Counted from the stretch's first letter, positions 50,244-64,000 are shown. The stretch: DNA of 64,000 bases from Pragia fontium DSM 5563 = ATCC 49100 (GCF_900112475.1 NZ_FOLW01000008.1:146535-210534); one strand, 5' to 3'. Numbers and translations are program-made. Notes: generated by a model from the sequence alone, not told the origin.

Positions 50244-50888
50244 ATGACGCTCTTCTTACAAAACTGTTTATCTTACCCGGTCATTATTTTCAGTGGTTTG
50301 TTATTAATTGTCCTGTTTTATTGGGTCTGTGCCGCCTTTGGCCTGTTGGACATTGATATTCTCAACATTGACAGTCCGGATATGAATATTGACAGCCTTG
50401 ATGCCTCAGCCTTAGCGGGCTGGCTAACCAAGCTCGGCCTTGCCGGTATCCCCCTCACCGTTATTATTACCTTAGTGACGCTCATTGGCTGGCTACTCAG
50501 TTATTTTAGCGTACACCTGATGCTGCGCTGGATAGAGACTGACTTTATTCGCTACTTATTAGGCACAGCCGCTTTCCTACTGATTGCGTTTATCGCCCTC
50601 CTGCTGACTTCAATGTTATTGAAACCATTGCGACCGATACTGGCCAATCATAATAAATCTAAAAGCGTGACCGGACTTATTGGCAAAATCGCTGAAGTTC
50701 GCTCTTCCATTGTCACCCTTCAACGTGGTGAAGCACTGATGGAAGACGGCGGAGGTGGTTTAATCCTACAAATACGCGCCCCGGAAGATGCTGGTATTGT
50801 CAGAGGCGATCGCGTGGTATTAATCCGCTATGATGCGGCAACACATAGCTATGAAGTGGTGAGTGAAACCGAGTTTAATCGGCTATAA
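50244..50888 (+). CDS. YqiJ/NfeD-like inner-membrane protein: multiple TM helices plus a C-terminal OB-fold-like soluble domain. Partner of the flotillin gene
   Basis: 214 aa. Three or four hydrophobic helices, then …TGLIGKIAEVRSSIVTLQRGEALMEDGGGGLILQIRAPEDAGIVRGDRVVLIRYD…, a β-rich NfeD-type C-terminus. Lies immediately upstream of the SPFH gene. Confidence 0.6.
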   Translation: MTLFLQNCLSYPVIIFSGLLLIVLFYWVCAAFGLLDIDILNIDSPDMNIDSLDASALAGWLTKLGLAGIPLTVIITLVTLIGWLLSYFSVHLMLRWIETDFIRYLLGTAAFLLIAFIALLLTSMLLKPLRPILANHNKSKSVTGLIGKIAEVRSSIVTLQRGEALMEDGGGGLILQIRAPEDAGIVRGDRVVLIRYDAATHSYEVVSETEFNRL

Positions 50889-51012
50889 GTCACACCAAAC
50901 AATTTTATTTGTAAACCTAACTATCTGACGGCCCTAAAGTCATTTGGGCTTAGATGAATAGTCAATTAAGTCCTTGTGGGACTCAGGACCCTAACAACAT
51001 GGAGAAACACCT

Positions 51013-53196
51013 ATGGTCATGGCAGATATAATGCCGTTCTTAACCATTATTGCATCGGTCATCATTGTAATTTTGGGCCTTTTTGGATTGTTTAAAGCGT
51101 TTTATATCAAAGTACCACAAGGCACCGCCCTGATCGTCAACGATATGTCATCGCAACCTAAAGTCCATTTTACCGGTGCGTTGGTTTATCCGGTCATTTA
51201 CAAAAAAGAGTTTATGCGCATCTCTTTGCTGACGCTGGAAGTTGACCGTCGTAGTAAAGATGGCCTGATCTGTAAAGATAACCTGCGTGCTGACATCACC
51301 GTTGCCTTTTACCTACGCGTGAATGAAACCACCGAAGACGTGTTAAAAGTGGCCAAAAACATTGGCGTTGAACGCGCATCGGATCATCAGGCGGTTAGTG
51401 CCTTGTTTAGTGCTAAGTTCTCTGAAGCACTGAAAACGGTTGGTAAGCAATTTGAGCTGTACAAGCTGTTTGAAGATCGGCAGAACTTCCGCGATCGCAT
51501 CATCGATGTAATTGGTAAAGATCTGAACGGCTATGCGCTGGAAGATGTCGCGATTGACTACTTAGAGCAAACGCCAAAGAGCTCACTGGATCCGAATAAC
51601 ATCTTCGATTCCGAGGGTATCCGTAAGATCACCGAGATCACCGCGATTCATAATATCGAAACCAACCAGAAAGAGCGCGATCAGGAACTGGCGATTAAAA
51701 AGAAAAACGTGGAAACCCGCGAAGCCAGTCTGGCCCTGGAACGCCAACAGGCCGATGCTGAAGCACGTCAACAGCGTGAAATTGAAAGCATCAGAGCTCG
51801 TGAAGCTGCTGAAACACTGCGCGTTAAAGAAGAAGAACGCCTGAAAGCGGAACAAGCCCGAATTCAAACTCAGCAGGAAATCGAAATCCGCGAAGAAAAT
51901 CGCCTGCGTGAAGTTGAAGTTGCTCAGCAAAACCGTACTCGTGCAGTCACCATCGAAATCGAGAAAGTCACCCGGGCAAAAGATCTGGAAGTGGTTTCTC
52001 GTGAGCGTGAAGTAGAACTACAACGTATTGAAAAAGAAAAAGCGTTGGAAGAAGAGCGCAAAAACATTGCTAACGTTATTCGTGAACGCGTTGCGGTCGA
52101 AAAAACCGTTGCTCAGGAAGAAGAACGAATTAAAGAAGTACGCATGATATCTGACGCCGATCGCCAGAAACAAGTCACCATCATTCAAGCTCAGGCAGAA
52201 GCCGAGCAAGAGTTGGTGCGTCAGGTGAAGCAAGCCGAAGCCGATGAAAACAGTGCTAAACATAAAGCTCAGGAAATCAGCACCATGGCTCAGGCTGAGC
52301 TTGAGGCTGCCGCTAAACAATCCGAAGCCAAAAAACGCATGGCGGAAGGTATCGAGGCAGAGCAGGCCGCTCTGGGTCTGGCAGAAGCCCGAGTCCGTCA
52401 GGCTCAGGCCGAAGCGGAAGAAAAAGAAGGCTTAGTGCTGGCTAACGTCACCGCAGAGAAACTGCTAGCAGAAGCCCGCGGTTCTCAGGAAAAAGGCTTG
52501 GCCGAAGCGAGAGTGAAAGAAGCTCAGGCTGCTGCCGCAGAGAAACAAGGTCTGGCTGAAGCTAAAGTACTGGAAGAAAAACTCACTGCTCAAGCGCGCG
52601 GTGATGAACAACAAGCTCTGGCGAAAGAGAAACTGGGTCTGGTTGATGCCAAAGTATTGGAAGAAAAACTGGTAGCTCAGGCTCGCGGTGAAGGTCAGCT
52701 AGGTTCAGCCCAAGCGGAAGTTGTACGTCAGCGTCTTAAAGCTGAAGCGGATGGTTTAACCGATAAATTTACCGCTATGGGTAACCTGAATACCACGGCT
52801 CGCGAGCACGAAGAGTTCCGTATGCAGTTGGAAAAACACTTTGAGCAAAGCATGGCTTCTATCGCCGCCAATAAAGAAATTGCCAGAGAGCAAGCCGATG
52901 TTCTGGCGGCGGCACTCAGCAAAACCAACATCGATATTGTGGGTGGCGACGGCAGCTTCTTTAATACCTTCTCTAAAGCCCTTAGCGTTGGTAAAGCCAT
53001 TAATGGCGTAGTAGACAAGAGCCCACTGGTACAAGACGTTGTGCAGAAGCTGTTAACCAGCGATAAAGCGGGTCAGAAACTCGATCTGGACGCGTTATTA
53101 CAAAACCCGGAAGTTCAGGCGTTGATTCAGCAATTCACCGCTGCCAAAACGCTACCGGCTGCTGCACCAAAAAATAACTACGATTCACAAGAGTAA
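51013..53196 (+). CDS. Flotillin-like SPFH (band-7) domain protein with an extended EA-repeat coiled coil (YqiK/FloT-like)
   Basis: 727 aa. N-terminal TM anchor (FLTIIASVIIVILGLFGLF), SPFH core (…YIKVPQGTALIV…ISLLTLEVD…DNLRADITVAFYLRV…), then about 400 aa of E/A/K/Q-rich coiled coil. Confidence 0.8.
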   Translation: MVMADIMPFLTIIASVIIVILGLFGLFKAFYIKVPQGTALIVNDMSSQPKVHFTGALVYPVIYKKEFMRISLLTLEVDRRSKDGLICKDNLRADITVAFYLRVNETTEDVLKVAKNIGVERASDHQAVSALFSAKFSEALKTVGKQFELYKLFEDRQNFRDRIIDVIGKDLNGYALEDVAIDYLEQTPKSSLDPNNIFDSEGIRKITEITAIHNIETNQKERDQELAIKKKNVETREASLALERQQADAEARQQREIESIRAREAAETLRVKEEERLKAEQARIQTQQEIEIREENRLREVEVAQQNRTRAVTIEIEKVTRAKDLEVVSREREVELQRIEKEKALEEERKNIANVIRERVAVEKTVAQEEERIKEVRMISDADRQKQVTIIQAQAEAEQELVRQVKQAEADENSAKHKAQEISTMAQAELEAAAKQSEAKKRMAEGIEAEQAALGLAEARVRQAQAEAEEKEGLVLANVTAEKLLAEARGSQEKGLAEARVKEAQAAAAEKQGLAEAKVLEEKLTAQARGDEQQALAKEKLGLVDAKVLEEKLVAQARGEGQLGSAQAEVVRQRLKAEADGLTDKFTAMGNLNTTAREHEEFRMQLEKHFEQSMASIAANKEIAREQADVLAAALSKTNIDIVGGDGSFFNTFSKALSVGKAINGVVDKSPLVQDVVQKLLTSDKAGQKLDLDALLQNPEVQALIQQFTAAKTLPAAAPKNNYDSQE
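52366..52710 (+). repeat. In-frame tandem repeats of about 120 nt (40 aa) encoding alternating GLAEARV(K/R)xAQAxAAEK and GLxxAKVLEEKLxAQARGxxQ units inside the flotillin gene
   Basis: Near-identical nucleotide stretches, for example gctaaagtactggaagaaaaactcactgctcaagcgcgcggtga and gccaaagtattggaagaaaaactggtagctcaggctcgcggtga. EA repeats are a known flotillin feature. Confidence 0.6.
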
Positions 53197-53204
53197 TGAA
53201 TAAG

Positions 53205-53295
53205 CCAGACTACTGCGGTTCACCGCAGTAGTCTGGTCGCTTCATGGCATTAATTAAGATAAGCCTATTATTTCCATGGGCTTATCTTAGTTAAT
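53205..53295 (+). promoter_or_regulatory. Two long stem-loops in the 116-bp flotillin/giant-gene spacer: a 14-bp perfect stem at 53205-53236 and a 15-bp stem with one mismatch at 53251-53295
   Basis: ccagactactgcgg-ttca-ccgcagtagtctgg with no strong U-tract after it. taattaagataagcc-(13 nt)-ggcttatcttagtta ends 18 nt before the giant-gene ATG. Confidence 0.55.
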
Positions 53296-53312
53296 TTCTC
53301 CGTCAATACAGC

Positions 53313-56300
53313 ATGTCGCATGACCAGACAGGACGTTTGCGCCATGATACGGAACCCGAGTTAACGCTTATAAAGTCAACTTCGATCAAGGGAACGTTAA
53401 ACGCCATGTCAGATAGCCAAGTGAATAATCGCGAGCAAGAATTACTGGATAACGCCGTTGCTGAAGGCGGTGCCTATGATATTTTACGTAAGCGTTTATC
53501 TGAACAGGGTCAACAAATACACGACAAAGCGCACCAGCTAAACCAACGCCGTCTGGAAGAGTTTGGCAAAAGCCAGATGGATATCATTGGGCGTATGCGC
53601 ATCCGTACCGAAAATAACTGCGTCGCCCGGGATATTGTACGCGTTGGCGACTGGTTACTCTTCGGCTATAACGTTTTCATTGGACTCAAGAAAGAAACCC
53701 GCATTGAAGACGTATTTTCACTGTATCGACTAAAAGAAGAAAACGGTGAATATGATGTTGAGTCGGTTCCTTTAACCGGCACTTTCCTGAATATCACCAG
53801 CTTCGTTCAAGACTTTAATGAACTGTATACCTATTATAAAAACACCCAGTTACTGCAATTAGTTGAACGTGACGGCAAGCTGCTGGCCAGCTTTCAAATC
53901 GGTGAGCGCATTACCGATATTCGGGTGTTTCGCTGGTCCATTTCCAGTGATAAAACTGAAATAAAATATATTGATAACCGTGGTGAGCGAGATATCGCCC
54001 TGCCCCCGGCCTATGATTTTGAATGGCAAAAAACCACTCGCGAAAATGCGATTAACGGCCGCCATCCACACATGAACATTCTGGATACCGTCTTCGTTGA
54101 AACTATCGGTGGTGACCTGACCATCAAGTGTGAAAACAATACTGAAGATGGACTGGGAATTTACCGTGAGGCGGTGTTAGACAAAACCCAATCGCTGGAT
54201 GATGCACAGATTGAGTATGCCCAAACCGGTAGCCTGATTCTGCTAAAAATTCTGCCTTACCGAGAAGATACCTGGCGGTATCTGGTTTATAACACCATCA
54301 CTCAAACCGTACAGCGTATTGATGCGATTGGTTCTGCCTGTATTCAGCTTCCGGAAGATCACGGTATTATCTTCCCCGGTGGCTATTATCTACAAAGTGG
54401 TGAATACAAAACATTTGACCAGCCGATGGATGGAATGCGTTTCCGTCGTATTCGTCGATCGCCTAATGGCGAAGACGTGATGTATATTTTTTACGAACCC
54501 AATTTCGGTCGATTGGCGTTGTTTAACTACAACATGATTGAACGTAAATTGCAGAATCCGCTATTCGGCCATGGTTATGCCATGCTGGAAGATGGCCGTA
54601 TGGTTCTGTTTGAAGGTCAATCAGATGAGCCAACGCGTATTCACCCGATGCAGGTTTGGCAAACGCCATTCTATTCCGATGAATTTGCTGCGCTACAGCC
54701 GGCTAACAATAGCTTCTTTGGACGCATTGGCAACGCCGAGCTGGTACGCGGAATATCCGACCTCTACCATATTGCCAAAGAGATTGAACAGCAGCAGATA
54801 TCTTCACAGCTGTATGAAAAACTGTGCCAAGACGCTCGCCGACTGATCGATCTTTATTACTGGCTCAATGATGAACACAGCCTGAATGCCACTATTCTGC
54901 TGAAAGAAATCGCCAACACTGGCGAACTGGTACTGGATGAATACGAGAAAGTAGAAAGTATTCGTCGTCAGTCAACCAGAGCCATGAATGAGGCCACATC
55001 GCGTCAGAAACAGCTCTTGTCTCTGATGTTGCCTGACAGTTGGCATAACGCCCAGCAGTTTGTTGATGCGCTGAATGATCTCAGCGTGCAACGAGGTCAT
55101 CTGATTACCCTGCGCGACTACCGCTATATTGATTTGTCTCGTCTTGATGAGATGGAACAACAATTGGCTGAAAGTCAGGAACGCATCTCATTGGCTACGG
55201 CGGAGTTCCTTGCCAGCGAGCAAGCCCTGCAACCGTTCACCGATCAATTGCAGGCGTTAGATAAGCAAACTCAGGCCGCCGCCAACAGTTCACAACTGGT
55301 TGAGCCGATGGCCGGCATGGACAAGATGTCTGCTGATTTGGATATGCTCTCGAATTTGATGGCTTCACTAAAGTTCGAAGACACCACACAGCAAACCCAT
55401 ATCATCGAGGCGATTTCAGAAATCTATGCCCGCCTGAATCAGGCGCGAGCACGTTTACAGCAGCGCCGTAAAGAACAGAGTTCGGTGGAGTCTGTCGCCC
55501 AATTTGGCGCTCAATTTAAACTTTTCAGCCAGAGCATTACCAATGCGCTGACGCTGGCGACGGATCCTGAACGCTGTGACGAACAGCTCTCGCGTCTGCT
55601 GGTGCAGTTGGAAGAACTGGAAACCCAATTCAACGAACACGAAGAATTCCTCAATGACATTCTAAGCAAACGCGAAGAAATGCTGGAAACCTTCGAAACC
55701 CATAAGCAATCGCTACTGGATGAACGTCAACGCAAGTCACAGAATTTACAGGTTGCCGCTGAACGGCTGCTGGATAGCCTACAGCGCCGAACGGCCAAGT
55801 TCACTACTCTTGATGAGCTAAATGCGTTCTTTGCTTCCGACCCCCTGTCATTAAAAACCCGGGAAATTGTCGAGCGTTTACGCGCACTCAAAGACAGCGT
55901 TAAAGCTGACGATATTGATGCCAAATTTAAGGCTGCCCGCGATCAAGCGATTCGCAGCCTGCGCGATAAATCCGAAATATTTGAAGACGGTGGTAACGTA
56001 ATTAAACTGGGTCCGCGCCATCGTTTCAGTGTCAATACACAGGAACTGGATCTGACCATTTTGCCAAGAGGCGATCGACTATATCTGCACCTGACGGGTA
56101 CGGATTATCAAGAGCCTATTGATAGCCCTGAATTAGAAGCCCTGAAAGAGTACTGGCAAATATCGCTGGAGTCAGAATCGCCGGATATTTACCGGGCCGA
56201 GTATCTGGCCTACTCACTAATTTACGCCGCCAGCAAAGAATTGGATGGACTGAGCCTCGAGAACCTAAAAGCGCTGGTTAATAAACCAGAAGCGCTAGAA

Positions 56301-58343
56301 AAATTGGTCCGTGATTTTGCCTCACCACGCTATAAAGAAGGCTATGAGAAAGGCATCCACGATCACGATGCGGTAGCCATTTTACAGAAACTGATCCCCG
56401 TTAGGGAAAGTGCCGATCTGTTACGCTTTAATCCACATGCTCGCAGCATTGCCGTCCTTTTCTGGCAGCATGTTCATAGCCAAGAGTTACCCGCTCTTTG
56501 GCCAGAGCGAGCGCGTACCAGCATCAATATTCATCAGCTATTTCGTAACGATGCCGGTTTACTGGATCTTCAAGCTGAAATTGAAGCGGAACTCAGCCTA
56601 TTTCTTGAACAATACCCAATTGCCTGCCAGCCTTATCAACAATCACAGGCTGCTGAATACTTGAGCTTCGCATTAGGCCGAACACCGGTTGAATTCAGCT
56701 TTAGCAAATATGCTCGTACCCTGTCGGAAGGCTTACAGTCCCAGTTAGAAAAAGCCCATATGTGGGGCGACTTCAACCGCTCACAGCAGAATTTAGCCAA
56801 ACGCTGGTCACAACGTTGGTCATTGGCAGACAATTGGTTGCAAGGGCTTTGCTCTCTGCCAGAATATCAAAATCTAAAAAGCTATATTTCGGAAGCCATC
56901 GTCATCCTGCTGTTAGATAAAGGCATAAAGACCCGGTTTAGTGAAGTCGACTTGCACTTCACCGTGACAAACCTGATGGGTGAGCATCCTCTGATTCAAA
57001 ACCAATCCCTGACGCTTAGCCTGGATGATTATTTCAGCCGGATGCGTAAACAACGCAAGCAGTTCATTCCAGCCTACCATCGCTATCAGGAACTGCGTCA
57101 GGAAGTCTTAAGCCAGCAGAGAAATCAGCTGCGTCTGCATGAATTTAAGGCTCGCCCTCTCAGTTCATTCGTGCGTAATAAGCTGATCAATGACGTTTAT
57201 TTGCCGATCATCGGCGATAATCTAGCTAAACAAATTGGTGCGTTGGGTGAAGGAAAACGTACCGACCTGATGGGCTTACTATTAATGATCTCGCCGCCCG
57301 GCTACGGTAAAACCACACTGATGGAATATATCGCAAATCGCCTAGGCCTGATATTCATGAAGATTAATGGACCAGCCTTAGGTCACGATGTGTTGTCGCT
57401 GGATCCACAGCAAGCCCCGAATGCCACCGCCCGTCAGGAATTAGAGAAATTAAATCTGGCACTGGAAATGGGCAATAACGTTATGCTGTATGTCGATGAT
57501 ATCCAGCATACCAATGCCGAATTCCTGCAAAAATTCATCTCTCTTTGTGATGGTACCCGGCGAATTGAAGGGGTATGGAAAGGCAAGACCAAAACTTATG
57601 ATATGCGCGGGAAAAAATTCTGTGTCGTGATGGCGGGTAACCCTTATACCGAATCAGGCGAAGTGTTTAAAATTCCTGATATGCTGGCCAACCGCGCGGA
57701 TATTTATAATCTCGGCGAAGTTCTGGGTGGCATGGAAGAGGCATTTGCCCTGAGCTATATTGAAAACAGCTTAACCTCTAATCCGGTACTGGCACCGCTG
57801 GCACTGAGAAACATGAGCGATCTGTATTTATTTGTTGATAAAGCAATGGGTAAACCGTTCTCTAATAATGCGCTGAGCTATCAATACAGTGAAGCGGAGA
57901 TCGCCGAAATTGTTGCCATTCTTGAACGATTAATCACGCTGCGAGACGTGGTGTTAAAAGTGAATCAGCAATATATCGCCAGTGCTGCACAGTCAGATAA
58001 ATACCGTACTGAACCGAGCTTTAAGCTTCAGGGTAGCTATCGTAATATGAATAAACTGACGGAGAAAATTTCGGCGGTGATGAATCCGGCCGAAGTTCGC
58101 CGCATTCTTGACGATCACTATTTAGGTGAAGCTCAACTGCTAACCAGTGGCGCAGAAGAAAACTTATTAAAGCTGGCTGAAATCCGCAATATCATGTCAC
58201 CTCAGGAAGAGCAACGCTGGGGACTGATAAAGCGTGACTTTATGAAGAATAAAGCACTGGGCGGAGATAATGCGGAAGTTGGCGATCGCGTCGTAGCTCA
58301 ACTGGCCGATCTGGTAGAAAGTGTACAAGCCCTGAGGAATTGA
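53313..58343 (+). CDS. Giant (1676-aa) uncharacterised protein: N-terminal β-rich region, central coiled coil, and a C-terminal MoxR-class AAA+ ATPase module
   Basis: Single uninterrupted ORF. Walker A LLMISPPGYGKTTLMEY (about aa 1325-1335, nt about 57298-57318). Walker B MLYVDDIQH (nt about 57487-57510). Sensor-1-like VVMAGNP and arginine-finger-like LANRADIYNL, as in the MoxR/RavA family (ATxNP … LLDRF). The central region is heptad-rich (…LDEMEQQLAESQERISLATAEFLASEQALQPF…). The start codon is uncertain: 53313 or 53406. Confidence 0.6.
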   Translation: MSHDQTGRLRHDTEPELTLIKSTSIKGTLNAMSDSQVNNREQELLDNAVAEGGAYDILRKRLSEQGQQIHDKAHQLNQRRLEEFGKSQMDIIGRMRIRTENNCVARDIVRVGDWLLFGYNVFIGLKKETRIEDVFSLYRLKEENGEYDVESVPLTGTFLNITSFVQDFNELYTYYKNTQLLQLVERDGKLLASFQIGERITDIRVFRWSISSDKTEIKYIDNRGERDIALPPAYDFEWQKTTRENAINGRHPHMNILDTVFVETIGGDLTIKCENNTEDGLGIYREAVLDKTQSLDDAQIEYAQTGSLILLKILPYREDTWRYLVYNTITQTVQRIDAIGSACIQLPEDHGIIFPGGYYLQSGEYKTFDQPMDGMRFRRIRRSPNGEDVMYIFYEPNFGRLALFNYNMIERKLQNPLFGHGYAMLEDGRMVLFEGQSDEPTRIHPMQVWQTPFYSDEFAALQPANNSFFGRIGNAELVRGISDLYHIAKEIEQQQISSQLYEKLCQDARRLIDLYYWLNDEHSLNATILLKEIANTGELVLDEYEKVESIRRQSTRAMNEATSRQKQLLSLMLPDSWHNAQQFVDALNDLSVQRGHLITLRDYRYIDLSRLDEMEQQLAESQERISLATAEFLASEQALQPFTDQLQALDKQTQAAANSSQLVEPMAGMDKMSADLDMLSNLMASLKFEDTTQQTHIIEAISEIYARLNQARARLQQRRKEQSSVESVAQFGAQFKLFSQSITNALTLATDPERCDEQLSRLLVQLEELETQFNEHEEFLNDILSKREEMLETFETHKQSLLDERQRKSQNLQVAAERLLDSLQRRTAKFTTLDELNAFFASDPLSLKTREIVERLRALKDSVKADDIDAKFKAARDQAIRSLRDKSEIFEDGGNVIKLGPRHRFSVNTQELDLTILPRGDRLYLHLTGTDYQEPIDSPELEALKEYWQISLESESPDIYRAEYLAYSLIYAASKELDGLSLENLKALVNKPEALEKLVRDFASPRYKEGYEKGIHDHDAVAILQKLIPVRESADLLRFNPHARSIAVLFWQHVHSQELPALWPERARTSINIHQLFRNDAGLLDLQAEIEAELSLFLEQYPIACQPYQQSQAAEYLSFALGRTPVEFSFSKYARTLSEGLQSQLEKAHMWGDFNRSQQNLAKRWSQRWSLADNWLQGLCSLPEYQNLKSYISEAIVILLLDKGIKTRFSEVDLHFTVTNLMGEHPLIQNQSLTLSLDDYFSRMRKQRKQFIPAYHRYQELRQEVLSQQRNQLRLHEFKARPLSSFVRNKLINDVYLPIIGDNLAKQIGALGEGKRTDLMGLLLMISPPGYGKTTLMEYIANRLGLIFMKINGPALGHDVLSLDPQQAPNATARQELEKLNLALEMGNNVMLYVDDIQHTNAEFLQKFISLCDGTRRIEGVWKGKTKTYDMRGKKFCVVMAGNPYTESGEVFKIPDMLANRADIYNLGEVLGGMEEAFALSYIENSLTSNPVLAPLALRNMSDLYLFVDKAMGKPFSNNALSYQYSEAEIAEIVAILERLITLRDVVLKVNQQYIASAAQSDKYRTEPSFKLQGSYRNMNKLTEKISAVMNPAEVRRILDDHYLGEAQLLTSGAEENLLKLAEIRNIMSPQEEQRWGLIKRDFMKNKALGGDNAEVGDRVVAQLADLVESVQALRN

Positions 58344-58350
58344 TTGACCA

Positions 58351-58923
58351 GTGAAGCAGTGGATAAAACAGCGCATTAAACTACTTGGCATATTGGCGAT
58401 CGTCTTGATCGCCATTCAGTGCCTGAATACGCTGACTAGTGGTTATTTAAACCAGTTTGGTATACTTCCTCGTACCAGCCAAGGGTTAGTGGGTATTCTA
58501 TTTTCTCCTTTTCTACACGGTGACTGGGGACATCTGCTTAGCAATCTTCCGGTGCTATTAATTTTAAGCGGATTATTACTCAGCAATTCTATTCGCTACT
58601 ATATTTCAGCCAGTGTTTTTATCATTTTACTGGAGGGATTATTAGTCTGGCTATTTGCGCGTTCGGCTATTCATATTGGTGCCAGCGGCTGGATTTTTGG
58701 CTTATGGTCGCTATTGTTAATCAATGCCTTCACTCAGCGCAGAATACGAGATTTTATTTTGGCGCTGCTTATTTTAGTTTATTTTGGTGGCATGGCGTCA
58801 GGACTACTCCCCAGTGAACCAGGCATATCAACAGAAGGCCATATTGCAGGCGCCATTGCTGGAGGTGCGTTTGCTTTTATTAGTAGAAAATTCATGAGAA
58901 AAAAAAGTCACCACACCCCTTAA
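58351..58923 (+). CDS. Rhomboid-family intramembrane serine protease, minimal 6-TM core
   Basis: 190 aa with a GTG start 8 bp after the giant gene's stop. TM2 motif HGDWGHLLSNL (H-x4-H-x3-N). Catalytic GASGWIFG (GxSG) in TM4. Catalytic His in EGHIAGAIAGG in TM6. Confidence 0.75.
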   Translation: MKQWIKQRIKLLGILAIVLIAIQCLNTLTSGYLNQFGILPRTSQGLVGILFSPFLHGDWGHLLSNLPVLLILSGLLLSNSIRYYISASVFIILLEGLLVWLFARSAIHIGASGWIFGLWSLLLINAFTQRRIRDFILALLILVYFGGMASGLLPSEPGISTEGHIAGAIAGGAFAFISRKFMRKKSHHTP

Positions 58924-59237
58924 TTTATTATTTCCCTCATTCCCTTTCCTATTATCGCTAAAGATTTTTATATTAAAAATTACCAAAGAAATGATCACCT
59001 GTTAAAAAATTGAGTTAATACCATCAAAAAAATGAAAAAAAATCCACTCATGTCAATTTTTGAGATCAAACTCTTTATTTTATTATCCAATTATCGCAAA
59101 CTACGGTTATAAGGCTTAATTAAATAAAAGATAAAATAATAGCAATAAAATAACGTGATCCAGTTCAAAAATATTTGGAATATCGCGTAATGAAAATTAA
59201 ATCTACTTGATTATTGTTTTATGGATAGAAACAGGTA

Positions 59238-59921
59238 ATGGAAAATAAAGAACTGGAGTTATATCTGAAGAGTACGCTGGCTGATTTAACATTAAGCCAC
59301 AGTGAACGTACTCAGTTAAGAGAATTAAGCCAATCCTTAAGTACTGAACAATCCGGCTTTATGCGTAATCTTGCCTTTGATTTAGTCAGAGAACAGCTTG
59401 ATACCGCACCTCAAAACCTCCTGCCAGTATTAAAATGGTTAGAAACCGTCATAAAGACCTTCGATATTGCCAACCAACAGAAGCAAAGCCACTCTACCGC
59501 CTACTTCTCACCAGGAGAAACCTGTCGGGAAAAAATTCGATCAATGCTTTCTCAGGCGACGAAAAAAGTCGATATATGCGTTTTTACTATTGCCGATGAC
59601 GCTATCACCGAATCTATCCTCAGTGCCCACCAGCGCCAGGTTCAGATACGTATTATCACTGATAATGATAAATCAGAAGATCAGGGAAGTGATATTGATT
59701 ACCTGCAACATAAAGGGATCTCCATCGTTACCGATAATAGTCCTTATCATATGCACCATAAATTCGCTATTTTCGATGATACTTACCTGCTAAACGGCAG
59801 TTTTAACTGGACCAGAAGCGCATCGCTGCACAACTGCGAAAATATTCTGATCACCGATTCCACTGAACTTTTAACCCGTTATCAACAAGAGTTTATTAAG
59901 CTGTGGCAGAGGTTTAGTTGA
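59238..59921 (+). CDS. Phospholipase-D superfamily protein with a single HKD motif (Nuc / MitoPLD-like), cytoplasmic, with an N-terminal helical extension of about 100 aa
   Basis: 227 aa. HKD signature HHKFAIFDDTYLLNGSFNWTRSA (H-x-K-x4-D … GSxN). No signal peptide. An A-GG-TA SD precedes the ATG. Confidence 0.7.
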   Translation: MENKELELYLKSTLADLTLSHSERTQLRELSQSLSTEQSGFMRNLAFDLVREQLDTAPQNLLPVLKWLETVIKTFDIANQQKQSHSTAYFSPGETCREKIRSMLSQATKKVDICVFTIADDAITESILSAHQRQVQIRIITDNDKSEDQGSDIDYLQHKGISIVTDNSPYHMHHKFAIFDDTYLLNGSFNWTRSASLHNCENILITDSTELLTRYQQEFIKLWQRFS

Positions 59922-60114
59922 TGAATAATCTGCTGAAAATAAAGCAAATGGAGGTAAAAAAATCAAAGACCGCTTTTCAGTTTACCCCTCAAAAAAAGGT
60001 AGATATACTCCCTCAAAAAGGAAGTGTCACTCTACGCAATGATTGCATAAAGTTCCCTCGGTTTGATGTCCCTTTATGTAATATCGTGACTTTCTATAAA
60101 AATAACAGAAACAC

Positions 60115-61486
60115 TATGAATAATAATATAAAACGTATAACGCTTTGCTGTGGTATTGCTCTCGTTCTGGCGGCTTGTTCTAATCCACCATCTCGAAAGA
60201 ACTTTGACTACGAAATTTCTCAAGGAAATCTGGAAGTAGCACAAAAGATCGCACTAACTGAAGGCGTCACCGCTGAGACTGATGCAACCACCGAGCTATT
60301 ATGGTCGCTGGAAGCAGGTGCTCTGCTACGTATGACTAATCAGCTTGATCGTTCAACCAAAGTATTTGATGGTGCAGAAAACCTGATCAAAGATAACGAA
60401 ACTCAGAATTTAGCCGCATCCGGTTTCAGCCAAGCTGCATCCATGGTAGTTAACGACAACATTATGGATTACACCCCGCGAGTTTATGACCGCGTGATGG
60501 TGAATACCTATAAAGCCCTTAACTTTTGGCAGCAGTCTGATTTCGCTAATGCCCGAGTAGAATGGAACCGCGTCGATGACCGTCAACGCCGTGCCGCAGA
60601 GTATTTCTCCAAAGAAATTAATGCACAAAAAAATGAAGTAAAAAGTAATAAGCTTGGGGAAAGCTACTCTAAATCCATGGAAACGCTTGAAGGATCGGGT
60701 ATCGATGTTTCAAAATGGGCGCCCTATGATGGTTATATTAACCCGGCCTCACTCTATCTGCATGGTCTCTACTTCCTGATTAACAATGAAAGTGCCGCTG
60801 ATTTAAATAAAGCCAAAGAGAGCCTAAAACGCGCCTATGCATTGACCAGAAGCAAGCAAATTCGCGCTGACCTTAATTTAGCCAACAAAGGTCGTAGCGT
60901 AGCACCCGGGGTTTGGGTTATTTTTGAAAATGGAACCTCGTCTAAAAAAGTAGAACGCCGCGTCGATTTACCATTAATTTTAGTCACGAGTCGTGTAGCT
61001 TATGCCGGTATTGCTTTACCGACCCTTGAGTCAGGTAGCCCGGCGTTTTCTAATCTTTCAGTCAATGGAGGAGGCAAAACGGAATCCTTCGCCAACATGG
61101 ATAAAATTATCCAGGGTGAATTTAAAACGGAATTTACCGGTATCCTTATCAAGGAATTAGCCAGAGCGGTGCTAAAAACTGCAGCACAAGCTTCGATGAT
61201 GAATTCCGACAACAGTACCGTAAGGATACTCGGCGCTATCACCGGTATCGCTCAAGCGGTAACCACGCAGGCTGATATTCGTAGCTGGCATACGCTGCCT
61301 TACGATTTTCAGGTGACCTACGTGAAGTGGCCAAAAAGCGGTCAAGTGCAATTAAGTCCGTCGGGCGGAGCGCCAATAACTGTCGATTTACCGGCAACGC
61401 CTCAACCCGTTGTTGTTTATGTGCGTGCTCTGAATGCGAGTACCACACCGCAGGTTAACGTGTTAACCAGTAAGAATGCGATGTAG
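60115..61486 (+). CDS. Predicted lipoprotein (about 457 aa), unknown family. An alternative upstream start at 59921 overlaps the PLD-like stop as TGATG
   Basis: From 60115: MNNNIKRITLCCGIALVLAACSNPP is a textbook lipoprotein signal peptide with an LAAC lipobox. The reading frame stays open 65 codons further upstream to an ATG that overlaps the preceding stop and has a GAGG SD. See findings. Confidence 0.55.
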
Positions 61487-61543
61487 ACCTATTCAGTTAG
61501 GCACCGTTATCGCACTGACCTTTAAACTGTATTGAGAACTTTG

Positions 61544-62161
61544 ATGATGAATATTTTAAACAAAAAAACGTTTCTTGCCGCGGCCTTTGCCCTTTCTTTA
61601 ACCGGCTGTGCTCAGGAAGGCGCTTACTATGTTGATAGTAAGAACGATAACGTTGCCGTGATGGGACTGGACTATAAAGATTTTGAAATGGCTGCCCAAA
61701 ATATGGTTGACGACATGTTAAGTTCAGACTTACTTGTTCATCCACAAGGCGGTCGTTATGTGCTAACCGTAACCGGCATTGTTAACGACACTGACCAACG
61801 TATCGATACCGATCAGTTAACCAAAAAAATCCGCTCTAGCCTGTTAAACTCAGGTCGTTTTGTGGTTACAACAGCGATTACCGCTAATGGACCAGAAGAT
61901 GAAATGACGCGTAAAGTACGTCAGCTGCGTAAATCTAAAATGGTTAACCAAAAAACCGTTAAGAAAGATGGCCGTGTAATCGCACCAGACTTCTCATTAA
62001 CCGGTAAAATCATTCAACAAAACCAACGTGTTAACTCTAAAACACAGCAAGTTGAATACTATTTCCAGCTAACGCTGACCAATCTGGACGATGGCTTAGC
62101 CTATTGGGAAAAAGAGTATCCAATCATCAAGCGTGGCGACAACCGCACCGCAAGCTGGTAA
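61544..62161 (+). CDS. Lipoprotein of the LpoB-like / DUF799 (Neisseria GNA1162-type) class
   Basis: MMNILNKKTFLAAAFALSLTGCAQ lipoprotein signal. Core …RYVLTVTGIVNDTDQRIDTDQLTKKIRSSLLNSGRFVVTT… resembles the LpoB / TolB-N-like fold motif (…VLLVDSVNNRTNGSLNAAEATETLRNALANNGKFTLVS… in E. coli LpoB). Confidence 0.5.
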   Translation: MMNILNKKTFLAAAFALSLTGCAQEGAYYVDSKNDNVAVMGLDYKDFEMAAQNMVDDMLSSDLLVHPQGGRYVLTVTGIVNDTDQRIDTDQLTKKIRSSLLNSGRFVVTTAITANGPEDEMTRKVRQLRKSKMVNQKTVKKDGRVIAPDFSLTGKIIQQNQRVNSKTQQVEYYFQLTLTNLDDGLAYWEKEYPIIKRGDNRTASW

Positions 62162-62185
62162 TCGGCTACTGTCACTATTCTGGCG

Positions 62186-62220
62186 TTATGCCGCAGAACC
62201 ACAATCGTTCTGCGGCATAA
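62186..62220 (+). other. 14-bp perfect stem-loop (ttatgccgcagaac-cacaatc-gttctgcggcataa) between the last two envelope genes, with no U-tract
   Basis: Seen directly in the sequence. It could be an intra-operon attenuator or mRNA-stability element that sets the stoichiometry of the two flanking products. Confidence 0.5.
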
Positions 62221-62253
62221 CATAAACGTGTTTAATCCATTAGGGCTTTCTTA

Positions 62254-63630
62254 ATGAAAAAATGGATCTTGGTACTGGTTGGTCTTTTGGCGTTTTCACC
62301 TGCAGTTTATGCAAAAATTGAAACCGTTGAAGCACAGGGATATGGTGAAACCTACGAAAAAGCGGTTGATTCGGCTTTAGCGGATGCCGTTCGTCAGGTT
62401 AACGGAATGACCGTAAGTACGCAGTCAGAACGCGCTGGTGATTTTGTTCGTGTCAAAGATAAAGTTGATGCCACTATCGAAGGAAAAGGCACCTACGTTC
62501 AGAACGAAAAGAACAAAGATGACTCTTTTTTGGGTAACAAAGGCGTAGACAGTACTTATACAGAAAATCTCGATGTTAACGTAGGCGGTAACGCTAATCG
62601 TGACTTAACCGTTAATACCGGCAAAAGTGCGCAAATCGATACGCGCAGCTCGGGTACCGTTAAAGGCTATAAAGTTAAAACTCGTGATTGTGATGCCAAA
62701 GGCTGTACCGTTGTTTTGACCGTTGAAATCGATAAAGTTGAACGTAAAACATCACAAGCTTCGTCCAAACGCGATCGTTTAGCCGTTATTACTACCGGTA
62801 ACCGTAGTCGTTCAGCATTTGCTAACACTCTACGTCAGGAAATCACTGACCGTATCGTGCAATCACAACGTTTTACCGTATTAGATCGTAGCTCGACGAA
62901 TGACAAAGCGTTTGAACAGGAAGAGAAATTTCTGGAAGGCCGTCTAAATAACTCTATTGATATTAAGCAAAGCGCCCTTCCCGCTGATTATATTCTGGTT
63001 ATTAACGTCACTGAAGCCGGTGTGAAAACCACCACTAAAGTAACCAGCGTTGATTTAACCGGTGAGTTTGATGTTAGCAGTTCGCACAAAACCAAAGTTA
63101 CCGTACGTTACTCGCTGCTTGAAGCGGCAACCCACGGTATCCAGTGGTCTGACTCCAGCGTATTTGAGCAAGGTGGCAGATACATTGAGACAGCGCGTAA
63201 GCAAATTAGCGACGTTATTGCTGATAAAATTGTCAACAAATTAACCCCCGCTAAAGTTGTCGCAGTAACCAACGGACAAGTGATTATCAACCGCGGTGAA
63301 GCCATGGTTTACGATGGCGATCGCTTTGATATCTTCTCTCAAGGCGAAGCTCTGGTCGATCCAGATACCGGTGAAGTACTCGGTGCGGCTGAAGAAAAAG
63401 TAGCAACTATTGTCATTAACTCGATTAAAGACAAAATTTCTTACGGCATCGTAGAAAGCGGTAAAATTGACGCCGTTGAGAAAGGGGCTATTGCCCGTCT
63501 GGCTGCCCCTCTTCCAGTAGAGAAGAAAGCAGCAGAGGCGAAAACGACTCAAGCTAAACCTAAAGCTAAGCCGAAACCAAAAGCTGATGCTCAAAGACTG
63601 GGTGACTCAGGTGGCGTCTTCCTGAAATAG
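62254..63630 (+). CDS. Secreted CsgG-like domain protein (CsgG/HfaB family core) with additional N- and C-terminal domains
   Basis: Signal peptide MKKWILVLVGLLAFSPAVYA. Core RLAVITTGNRSRSAFANTLRQEITDRIVQSQRFTVLDRS … ADYILVINVTEAG parallels CsgG (IAVxxFxNxTG … LxxSGRFxVVER … ADYLVTGSVTEFG). C-terminal β-rich module …VAVTNGQVIINRGEAMVYDGDRFDIFSQGEALVDPDTGEVLG…, and a K/P/A-rich tail. Confidence 0.6.
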   Translation: MKKWILVLVGLLAFSPAVYAKIETVEAQGYGETYEKAVDSALADAVRQVNGMTVSTQSERAGDFVRVKDKVDATIEGKGTYVQNEKNKDDSFLGNKGVDSTYTENLDVNVGGNANRDLTVNTGKSAQIDTRSSGTVKGYKVKTRDCDAKGCTVVLTVEIDKVERKTSQASSKRDRLAVITTGNRSRSAFANTLRQEITDRIVQSQRFTVLDRSSTNDKAFEQEEKFLEGRLNNSIDIKQSALPADYILVINVTEAGVKTTTKVTSVDLTGEFDVSSSHKTKVTVRYSLLEAATHGIQWSDSSVFEQGGRYIETARKQISDVIADKIVNKLTPAKVVAVTNGQVIINRGEAMVYDGDRFDIFSQGEALVDPDTGEVLGAAEEKVATIVINSIKDKISYGIVESGKIDAVEKGAIARLAAPLPVEKKAAEAKTTQAKPKAKPKPKADAQRLGDSGGVFLK

Positions 63631-63658: not shown

Positions 63659-63677
63659 CCGCCTTCATAGAAGGCGG
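63659..63677 (+). terminator. Stem-loop ccgccttc-ata-gaaggcgg after the CsgG-like gene
   Basis: 8-bp GC-rich stem followed by cattgcttt. Lies between the gene's stop and the IS200 end. Confidence 0.55.
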
Positions 63678-63733
63678 CATTGCTTTGGCGCCCCTGAGGG
63701 GCGTACTAAGCTCGAACCCATAGGGCCCTCGCT

Positions 63734-64000
63734 TCACATCCCTTTTAAGCTTAATTGATTATCTTCAAGTTCATGTTTCTCTTGATACTTAACATACTTA
63801 CGAATCATTTCTGCATTTACACCTACGGTATCTACACAATAGCCCTTCGCCCAAAAATGGTTGCCCCACAGCTTTTTCTTTCTTAAATAGGGAAATTTAT
63901 TAAACAGCCTTATCGCTGTTCTTCCTTTCAAGTGCCCCATTACCTCTGACACTGAGAGCTTTGGTGGGATCTTGACTAATAAATGAACGTGATCTAATTG
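63734..64000 (-). mobile_element. tnpA: IS200/IS605-family transposase TnpA (Y1/HUH), C-terminal about 88 codons; the gene and the element continue beyond the window end
   Basis: Minus-strand translation …QLDHVHLLVKIPPKLSVSEVMGHLKGRTAIRLFNKFPYLRKKKLWGNHFWAKGYCVDTVGVNAEMIRKYVKYQEKHE… matches IS200 TnpA (…HIHMLLEIPPK.SVS.FMGYLKGKSS…FW.RGYYVDTVG…I..YI..Q…). A GC hairpin, cgcccc-tga-ggggcg, at 63690-63704 lies in the presumed element end. Confidence 0.85.

Follow-up and report, generated by a model that had tools for sequence, protein, structure and literature searches.

A three-gene envelope operon of Pragia fontium combines COG3014 and LpoB-family lipoproteins with a FlgT-like periplasmic protein

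What do three co-oriented genes near the end of a 64,000-nucleotide stretch of DNA from Pragia fontium (Budviciaceae, Enterobacterales; the whole stretch is called the window below) contribute to the cell envelope? The original prediction for these open reading frames (ORFs), here called g1, g2 and g3, was a CsgG-like outer-membrane ring encoded by g3 together with two lipoproteins. The assignment to this species agrees with P. fontium database entries that are 100% identical to g1 and to g3. The three ORFs were found where it had placed them, except that its start for g1 (60115) lies one base out of frame and the in-frame start is 60116. Its description of a co-encoded set of exported envelope proteins was also confirmed, as g1 and g2 are exported as lipoproteins and g3 as a non-lipidated periplasmic protein. 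Overall, g1-g2-g3 represents the three-gene form of a widely conserved, uncharacterised envelope operon whose general order is a COG3014 lipoprotein, an optional YcfL/DUF1425 protein, an LpoB-family lipoprotein, an optional DUF6844 protein and a FlgT-like protein.

Conservation of the gene set was assessed by a species-level genome scan with a g1 profile, which returned 427 genomes with a relative; the best 80 loci were annotated with home-built hidden Markov models (HMMs). The order g1-(YcfL)-g2-(DUF6844)-g3 was kept in 75 of these 80 genomes and g3 was present in 77, with the gene set occurring in gamma-, beta- and deltaproteobacteria and in Planctomycetota. The arrangement g1-g2-DUF6844-g3 was found in 31 loci, g1-g2-g3 as in Pragia in 21, g1-YcfL-g2-DUF6844-g3 in 19 and g1-YcfL-g2-g3 in 4, while the remaining five comprised one truncated contig, one split g3, one rearrangement and two loci without g3. 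Among the loci with annotated flanks, the surroundings of the cluster differed completely between lineages, and the divergence of g1, g2 and g3 was correlated (Spearman 0.80-0.89). The three-gene form occurred in Budviciaceae and Alcaligenaceae, where g3 is larger (437-476 amino acids (aa) as called); Sedimentisphaerales (Planctomycetota) carried a DUF6844-less form with the small lipoprotein and a g3 of the same called length (437-476 aa). The small inserted lipoprotein belongs to Pfam DUF1425, the YcfL family (3e-20, 8e-16), and the counterpart of DUF6844 is FTT_1539c, an uncharacterised Francisella protein with a solved structure (4qvr, 3.6e-41). Searching 5,426 complete E. coli genomes with blastn gave no match to g1-g3.

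The g3 product (62254-63630, plus strand, 458 aa) starts with a signal-peptidase-I type signal (residues 1-20, 62254-62313; cleavage between AVYA and K, read directly from the sequence) and has no lipobox, a lipobox-like string being present in only 3 of 78 orthologues. Its AlphaFold2 (AF2) model reached a mean predicted local distance difference test (pLDDT) score of 61, with about 70-87 in the folded domains and about 80-87 in the C domain. The N domain (residues 21-160, 62314-62733; AF2 model and alignment) consists of a beta-alpha core with beta-hairpins and is split by a disordered insert at about residues 52-133, which is missing from the aligned orthologues in four-gene clusters. The M domain (residues 174-330, 62773-63243; AF2 secondary structure) is an alpha/beta domain of the TolB-N/LpoB/CsgG/FlgT_M type with a long polar beta-hairpin (246-290) that carries a conserved TGE at its tip. 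It is followed by the C domain (residues 333-418, 63250-63507), a small beta-barrel of the FlgT_C/TsaP type, and by a tail (residues 419-458, then the stop codon; 63508-63630; pLDDT <50) that forms a disordered Lys/Pro/Ala-rich linker with the conserved terminal motif GGVFL(K). Among orthologues, the C-terminus reads GG[VI][IF]L or LPFD (G-V-x-L-P-F-D) after a disordered basic linker.

Foldseek searches with the g3 model gave FlgT (3w1e, 1.3e-15) and FlgT in the LPHT ring (8z5n, 2.2e-15), both with probability 1.00, ahead of HpaA (2.5e-6), GNA1162 (4hrv, 7.8e-6), CsgG (1.7e-5), and TolB and PelC (about 5e-5 and weaker), so that FlgT led CsgG by ten orders of magnitude. The domain sizes also agree, with 157 residues in g3 versus 167 in FlgT for the M domain and 86 versus 86 for the C domain; FlgT itself is non-lipidated and divided into N (24-109), M (121-287) and C (292-377) domains (bioRxiv 10.64898/2025.12.02.691832). 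With a predicted N-M-C fold, a Sec signal and no lipid anchor, g3 has the make-up of FlgT as far as the model goes, and we regard it as a periplasmic protein of FlgT-like build with a middle domain from the CsgG/LpoB superfamily. The window protein had no Pfam FlgT-domain match; its orthologues gave sub-threshold matches to FlgT_N (1.1e-3, the weak match of the Oceanimonas orthologue), FlgT_M (7e-3) and FlgT_C (0.017), and long tandem relatives scored above the Pfam FlgT_C cut-off (64-69 bits). Profiles of the g3 family matched TsaP (6ve2) at 1.6e-9, and at 2.2e-12 when built from 117 sequences, via the C-terminal domain. Close relatives of g3 carry the names ‘CsgG’, ‘LPS assembly lipoprotein LptE’, ‘TolB-like protein’ and ‘CsgG/HfaB family’, none of which suits its three-domain, non-lipidated architecture.

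The number of g3 relatives depended strongly on the search. A word-indexed search gave no more than 25-26, from Budviciaceae, Castellaniella and Oceanisphaera, and a g3 profile added almost nothing to it, while an exhaustive profile search returned 6,178 clusters at E<=1e-3 and 804 at E<=1e-30, most of them 375-450 aa long. Relatives of 700-960 aa were considered as DUF6844-g3 fusions, a possibility that was dropped as they are tandem repeats of an M + FlgT_C module; hhalign found no relation between g3 and DUF6844. Some relatives are tandem arrays of two or three [CsgG/LpoB-like + FlgT_C] modules, and in one of 1303 aa (P0253) an N-terminal caspase (Peptidase_C14) is fused to the tandem modules.

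An alternative explanation is that g3 forms a CsgG-like oligomeric secretion ring or pore in the outer membrane, with g1 and g2 as accessory lipoproteins in the style of curli, holdfast or GNA1162 systems. The three motif strings on which the CsgG assignment had been based are present in g3 (RLAVITTGNRS, QSQRFTVLDRS and PADYILVINVTEAG), but they are not specific for CsgG because they are common to the whole TolB-N/LpoB/CsgG superfamily, and g2 itself has ‘SGRFVV’. What remains of the proposed CsgG-family core is membership in the same superfamily: the 117-sequence profile reached CsgG chains in the PDB at 4.4e-4, over CsgG mature residues 36-180 and ending before the TM2 hairpin, and 9 of 16 aligned g3 relatives matched Pfam CsgG (best 1.3e-23, some weak; 8 matched LpoB and 4 the GNA1162-like family). 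CsgG also appears in the Foldseek list given above, and one g3 beta-hairpin sits at the position of TM1. However, g3 itself had no Pfam CsgG match at E<=1, and a close-family profile aligned to the verified E. coli CsgG over 65 columns with an hhalign probability of 1.8%. The N-terminal lipobox Cys of CsgG is absent from g3 and from 75 of 78 orthologues, and neither its pair of amphipathic hairpins (TM1, TM2) nor its Tyr/Asn/Phe constriction loop was found in g3. Between the last strand and the last helix, g3 has 4 residues (GGRY) at the TM2 position versus about 30 in CsgG, the counterpart of the constriction loop has about 6 residues versus about 20, and the sole hairpin at the TM1 position (246-290) is polar and rich in Thr, Ser and Lys. 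The extra N- and C-terminal domains that had been proposed to flank the core were borne out by the AF2 model, and the far better fold match is FlgT. In addition, the middle gene encodes an LpoB-family and not a DUF799 protein, g1 is not a DUF4810 protein, and an amyloid- or holdfast-type substrate gene was seen in none of the inspected loci. As g3 lacks the lipobox, the TM2 hairpin and the constriction loop and gained support from neither Pfam nor hhalign, we rejected the CsgG pore and consider it very improbable. The proposed likeness to a GNA1162-type locus was abandoned as well, as no protein of the operon matched the DUF799 or DUF4810 profile.

The g2 product (61544-62161, plus strand, 205 aa) is a short-linker lipoprotein of the LpoB family with the lipobox LTGC, and a lipobox-like string was found in 72 of 79 orthologues. 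It matched PF13036 at 4e-42 (144 bits, cut-off 22.3) and TIGR02722, the NCBIfam LpoB equivalog, at 160.7 bits (cut-off 110.55), and the profile matches and lipobox together place it in the family; a Pfam search gave no match to DUF799 (PF05643), so that of the mixed LpoB/DUF799 label originally given to this gene only the LpoB/TolB-N fold was retained. It is the most conserved of the three genes, with an identity to the Pragia protein of 94% within the family, 68-78% in Alcaligenaceae and 44-53% in marine gammaproteobacteria. Between Pragia and the Alcaligenaceae, which are betaproteobacteria, g1 is about 50% and g3 about 42% identical, compared with the 68-78% of g2, and the Pragia lineage and the Alcaligenaceae have in common that their three-gene form lacks DUF6844 and that the N domain of g3 carries the insert. 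This suggests either a very strong constraint on g2 or a lateral transfer of this variant.

Given this family assignment, g2 might be a working LpoB, that is, an outer-membrane activator of the peptidoglycan synthase penicillin-binding protein (PBP) 1B; g1 and g3 would then assist in regulating class-A PBPs, and the operon would be a control module of peptidoglycan synthesis. The score above the equivalog cut-off is in line with this reading, as is the E. coli K-12 genome, where ycfL (DUF1425) lies immediately upstream of lpoB and thereby parallels the DUF1425-LpoB-like pair found in 24 of the 80 loci. The long linker of LpoB spans the sacculus to reach PBP1B. In g2, however, only about 20 residues separate the anchor (Cys22) from the Pfam domain (from residue 46), versus about 57 in E. 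coli LpoB (Cys20, domain from about 78), so that the long disordered linker of the activator type (about 55 residues) was not found. Furthermore, g2 can hardly be aligned with the verified E. coli LpoB (BLASTP E=1.8), and an HMM built from cluster-type copies scored g2 at 377 bits and E. coli LpoB at 12.5 bits, although both hosts are Enterobacterales; this near-lack of alignment within one order points to g2 as a paralogue and not an orthologue of E. coli LpoB. V. cholerae has an LpoB homologue with PBP1B-pathway genetics (PMC4063736), and Vibrionaceae have the cluster, whose LpoB-family gene might be that homologue. A role of HP0018, a Helicobacter protein discussed below, in peptidoglycan remodelling has also been proposed (PMC11394524). 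Taken together, we regard a PBP1B-activating g2 as unlikely, if worth keeping in mind.

The g1 product (60116-61486, plus strand, 456 aa) is an outer-membrane type lipoprotein of the COG3014 family with the lipobox LAAC and the lipidated residue Cys21. It had been described as a 457-aa lipoprotein, and a search with DUF4810 had been suggested; the lipoprotein part was confirmed, with a length of 456 aa, and profile searches returned no Pfam match, DUF4810 included, and no NCBIfam match. Relatives named ‘COG3014 family protein’ were found in Budvicia, Achromobacter, Bordetella, Vibrio, Shewanella and others (E down to 1e-248), and a lipobox-like string was present in 75 of 80 orthologues. The AF2 model (pLDDT 83.9, predicted template modelling score 0.85) comprises a helical domain resembling tetratricopeptide repeats (TPR; residues 25-258) and an alpha/beta C-terminal domain (265-451). 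Two fold searches of the PDB with the whole model returned TPR matches only and none for the C-terminal domain. An LpoB-family gene follows g1 in 77 of the 80 loci, and a 78th locus has one on the opposite strand. The names of its homologues, its lipobox, its TPR region and the adjoining LpoB-family gene thus all assign g1 to COG3014. Across 37 homologues, 47 residues are invariant, many of them charged, which suggests a specific binding or catalytic site.

The mechanical ORF of g1 extends upstream to a TTG at 59918, and the public Pragia entry has 521 aa, with an upstream start (59918-60115) that abuts the phospholipase D (PLD)-like gene. The 456-aa form is the real lipoprotein precursor because Cys21 is nearly invariant in the 37 homologues; the deposited 521-aa gene model looks over-extended, as both the orthologues and Cys21 favour the start at 60116.

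Similar to g1, the Campylobacter jejuni protein Cj0089 is a TPR lipoprotein (453 aa, similar to Shewanella proteins), and it is encoded by the first of three co-transcribed lipoprotein genes, cj0089, cj0090 and cj0091, the latter two encoding a protein of 122 aa and an LpoB/COG3417-type lipoprotein of 207 aa (PMC3100323). Cj0089 was found in the inner-membrane and Cj0091 in the outer-membrane fraction, and Cj0091 has a role in adherence and chick colonisation (PMC3100323). H. pylori lacking HP0018, a Cj0089 homologue, forms chains of outer-membrane vesicles, and AmiA and MltD co-purify with HP0018; in other Helicobacter species hp0018 precedes the LpoB homologue hp1457 (PMC11394524). By the descriptions in these papers and the COG3014 name, g1 groups with Cj0089 and HP0018.

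The matches of g3 and g1 also raise the possibility of an accessory ring that acts in trans on a machine encoded elsewhere, such as the flagellar LP ring, a type IV pilus, a type II secretion system or a Tad secretin. FlgT and TsaP are the best structural and sequence matches of g3, the pilotins PilF, PilW and TadD are among the structures on which the g1 TPR domain superposes, and the arrangement would parallel FlgT at the LP ring, TsaP at PilQ and the TPR pilotins. In Oceanimonas and Oceanisphaera, moreover, the cluster abuts, in convergent orientation, the type IV pilus genes coaE-pilD-pilC. This adjacency is, however, limited to that one lineage, and the other annotated flanks are unrelated; the TPR matches of g1 are generic, as the domain superposes on many other TPR proteins as well. 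The hosts of the cluster have very different surface machines, and no flagellar genes lie beside the cluster in the window or in the loci with annotated flanks. A dedicated accessory role of this kind therefore seems improbable to us.

We instead favour, with somewhat more confidence than doubt, an outer-membrane-tethered periplasmic scaffold for envelope and peptidoglycan maintenance, by analogy with the systems named above. A scaffolding or regulatory role is suggested by the HP0018 phenotypes and by the LpoB family, and g1 and g2 are predicted to be sorted to the outer membrane because neither has Asp at position +2. CsgG, PelC and TsaP form rings. By analogy with these and with FlgT, g3 may self-associate into a ring or arc just beneath the outer membrane, where the two lipoproteins g1 and g2 would hold it. 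The TPR domain of g1 would serve as an adaptor, possibly docking the conserved C-terminal peptide of g3 in its groove. The assembly would then act as a structural or regulatory scaffold in maintenance of the outer membrane and peptidoglycan and not as a secretion channel. FlgT, the closest model, assembles into a 26-mer ring that the lipoproteins FlgP and FlgO keep in place beneath the outer membrane (bioRxiv 10.64898/2025.12.02.691832). DUF6844 proteins end in an invariant acidic ‘...D-F’ C-terminus, and from their sequences the C-termini of DUF6844 and g3 resemble docking peptides, with the g1 TPR domain as a possible partner.

Several observations weigh against this proposal. The template modelling (TM) scores between g3 and FlgT are low (0.22-0.29), which is because the domain orientations differ, and the g3 model is of moderate quality (mean pLDDT 61). 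The 117-sequence profile gave no significant match to FlgT in the PDB (E 0.14), and the same profile does reach CsgG, if weakly (4.4e-4). The operon itself includes no gene for a partner machine or a substrate. The phenotypes were seen with distant homologues from epsilonproteobacteria, in whose operons no g3-like gene has been described, and the homology of g1 to Cj0089 and HP0018 is taken from the COG3014 name and literature descriptions, not from an alignment.

Beyond the three proteins, the operon contains a conspicuous stem-loop between g2 and g3 (62185-62221, plus strand) with a perfect 15-bp stem and a 7-nt loop. The region 62160-62255 that holds it has a folding energy of -30.5 kcal/mol (z -4.6 versus shuffles). 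Six Budviciaceae loci have a strong stem of 8-13 bp at this position of the spacer with other sequences, which indicates that the structure and not the sequence is conserved; in one Budviciaceae locus (L013) the stem is weaker and interrupted. In two Achromobacter loci, the spacer contains a canonical terminator with a hairpin and T-run. The stem-loop may set the expression ratio of g2 to g3. A promoter and terminator scan found a terminator-like hairpin at 63659-63677 (plus strand), followed by the 3' part (63741-64000) of a minus-strand IS200-type Y1 transposase gene that runs past the end of the window (PF01797, 1.1e-24); the operon therefore ends with g3. Between this terminator and the transposase gene lies a second GC-rich palindrome, ggcgcccctgaggggcg (63685-63706).

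Upstream of g1, the original prediction had tied the three genes to a PLD-like gene and to a flotillin/rhomboid module as parts of one envelope-spanning assembly. Pragia, Budvicia aquatica, Leminorella grimontii and Limnobaculum allomyrinae all have a DUF3686/AAA ATPase gene (1676 aa), a rhomboid gene, the PLD-like gene and g1 in this order. For L. parvum, L. eriocheiris and B. diplopodorum, tblastn found remnants of the ATPase gene and a lost or degraded PLD gene next to an intact g1-g3, and it found these neighbours in no lineage outside the Budviciaceae. The functional tie was thus withdrawn, because the neighbours are confined to one family and were partly deleted in these three species while g1-g3 persisted; on this comparison of gene neighbourhoods, the association is synteny by descent and does not speak for an envelope-spanning assembly. 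The PLD-like protein is of the nuclease type, resembling NucT, DrmC and MkoC, and lacks a signal peptide; it has an additional N-terminal region of about 90 residues. The stretch from the rhomboid to the PLD-like gene (58500-60000) has a G+C content of 0.36, versus 0.43-0.50 around it. Further upstream, a three-gene block at 50244-58343 encodes proteins of 214 and 727 aa (no Pfam match) and the 1676-aa DUF3686/DUF7902/AAA ATPase. Some Budviciaceae have this block, and in others short remnants of it are left; it had no PADLOC match. Pfam did not confirm the ‘flotillin’ label of the 727-aa protein. An anti-phage defence role of g1 or g3 was also considered and discarded, as PADLOC gave no match.

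LpoB is treated as an enterobacterial invention for PBP1B activation. In the present data, most genes of the LpoB family are part of a conserved three- to five-gene operon that also encodes a COG3014 TPR lipoprotein and a periplasmic protein of the FlgT-like type, and the ycfL-lpoB pair of E. coli looks like a remnant of that operon. A further-reaching interpretation, to which we give little weight at present, is that a FlgT-like protein, an LpoB-family and a TPR lipoprotein form a new non-flagellar periplasmic ring, tethered to the outer membrane in hundreds of Gram-negative species, and that the COG3014-YcfL-LpoB-like-DUF6844-FlgT-like module is ancestral to the PBP1B activator LpoB and possibly also to FlgT. 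The operon gives the adherence and vesiculation phenotypes of Cj0089-91 and HP0018 a concrete setting, and likewise the origin of LpoB and a possible new periplasmic ring. It also means that the automatic names of g3 relatives (‘CsgG’, ‘LptE’, ‘TolB-like’) and of g2 (‘LpoB’) are likely misleading.

Compared to known systems, g3 resembles FlgT in its N-M-C order, similar domain sizes, Sec export and lack of lipidation. Unlike FlgT, it has no flagellar gene context and no significant sequence-profile match (0.14), is interrupted by about 80 extra residues in the N domain, bears a Lys/Pro-rich tail that closes with a conserved motif, and has COG3014 and LpoB-like partners beside it instead of FlgP and FlgO. 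With CsgG it shares the alpha/beta core of the M domain, of the same superfamily, and one hairpin at the TM1 position, whereas the lipid anchor, the TM2 hairpin and the constriction loop are missing and N and C domains are added. Its C domain and the repeated beta-barrels of TsaP (6ve2, 3jc8) are homologous, but g3 has a single barrel copy, no LysM domain and another gene context. The Neisseria GNA1162 locus, which we take to consist of a DUF799, a DUF4810 and a CsgG-like gene, is similar in co-encoding small envelope lipoproteins of TolB-N-like fold, with 4hrv among the fold matches of g3 (7.8e-6); it differs in that no protein of the Pragia operon matches DUF799 or DUF4810. Similar to YcfL-LpoB of E. 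coli, g2 fits the same Pfam and NCBIfam models and its family is preceded by a DUF1425 gene in 24 of 80 clusters, while the sequence of g2 is extremely distant from that of E. coli LpoB and its linker is short. The closest parallel in gene order is Cj0089-91, where, as in Pragia, a TPR lipoprotein of about 450 aa is encoded upstream of an LpoB homologue of about 205 aa in one operon. Many of the clusters analysed here also have a small lipoprotein between these genes, reminiscent of Cj0090 and there of the DUF1425 family; Pragia has no such middle lipoprotein and adds the 458-aa FlgT-like g3, while the epsilonproteobacterial operons, as described in the papers cited above, have no g3-like gene. 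Full-text literature searches for COG3014 and DUF6844 returned one incidental paper each and, within the library searched, no description of the extended module with a FlgT-like gene. A COG3014 + LpoB-like operon was already known in epsilonproteobacteria, and the Pragia locus is a variant with an added FlgT-like protein; it is not categorically new, and the extended form with the FlgT-like gene is the common form in gamma- and betaproteobacteria.

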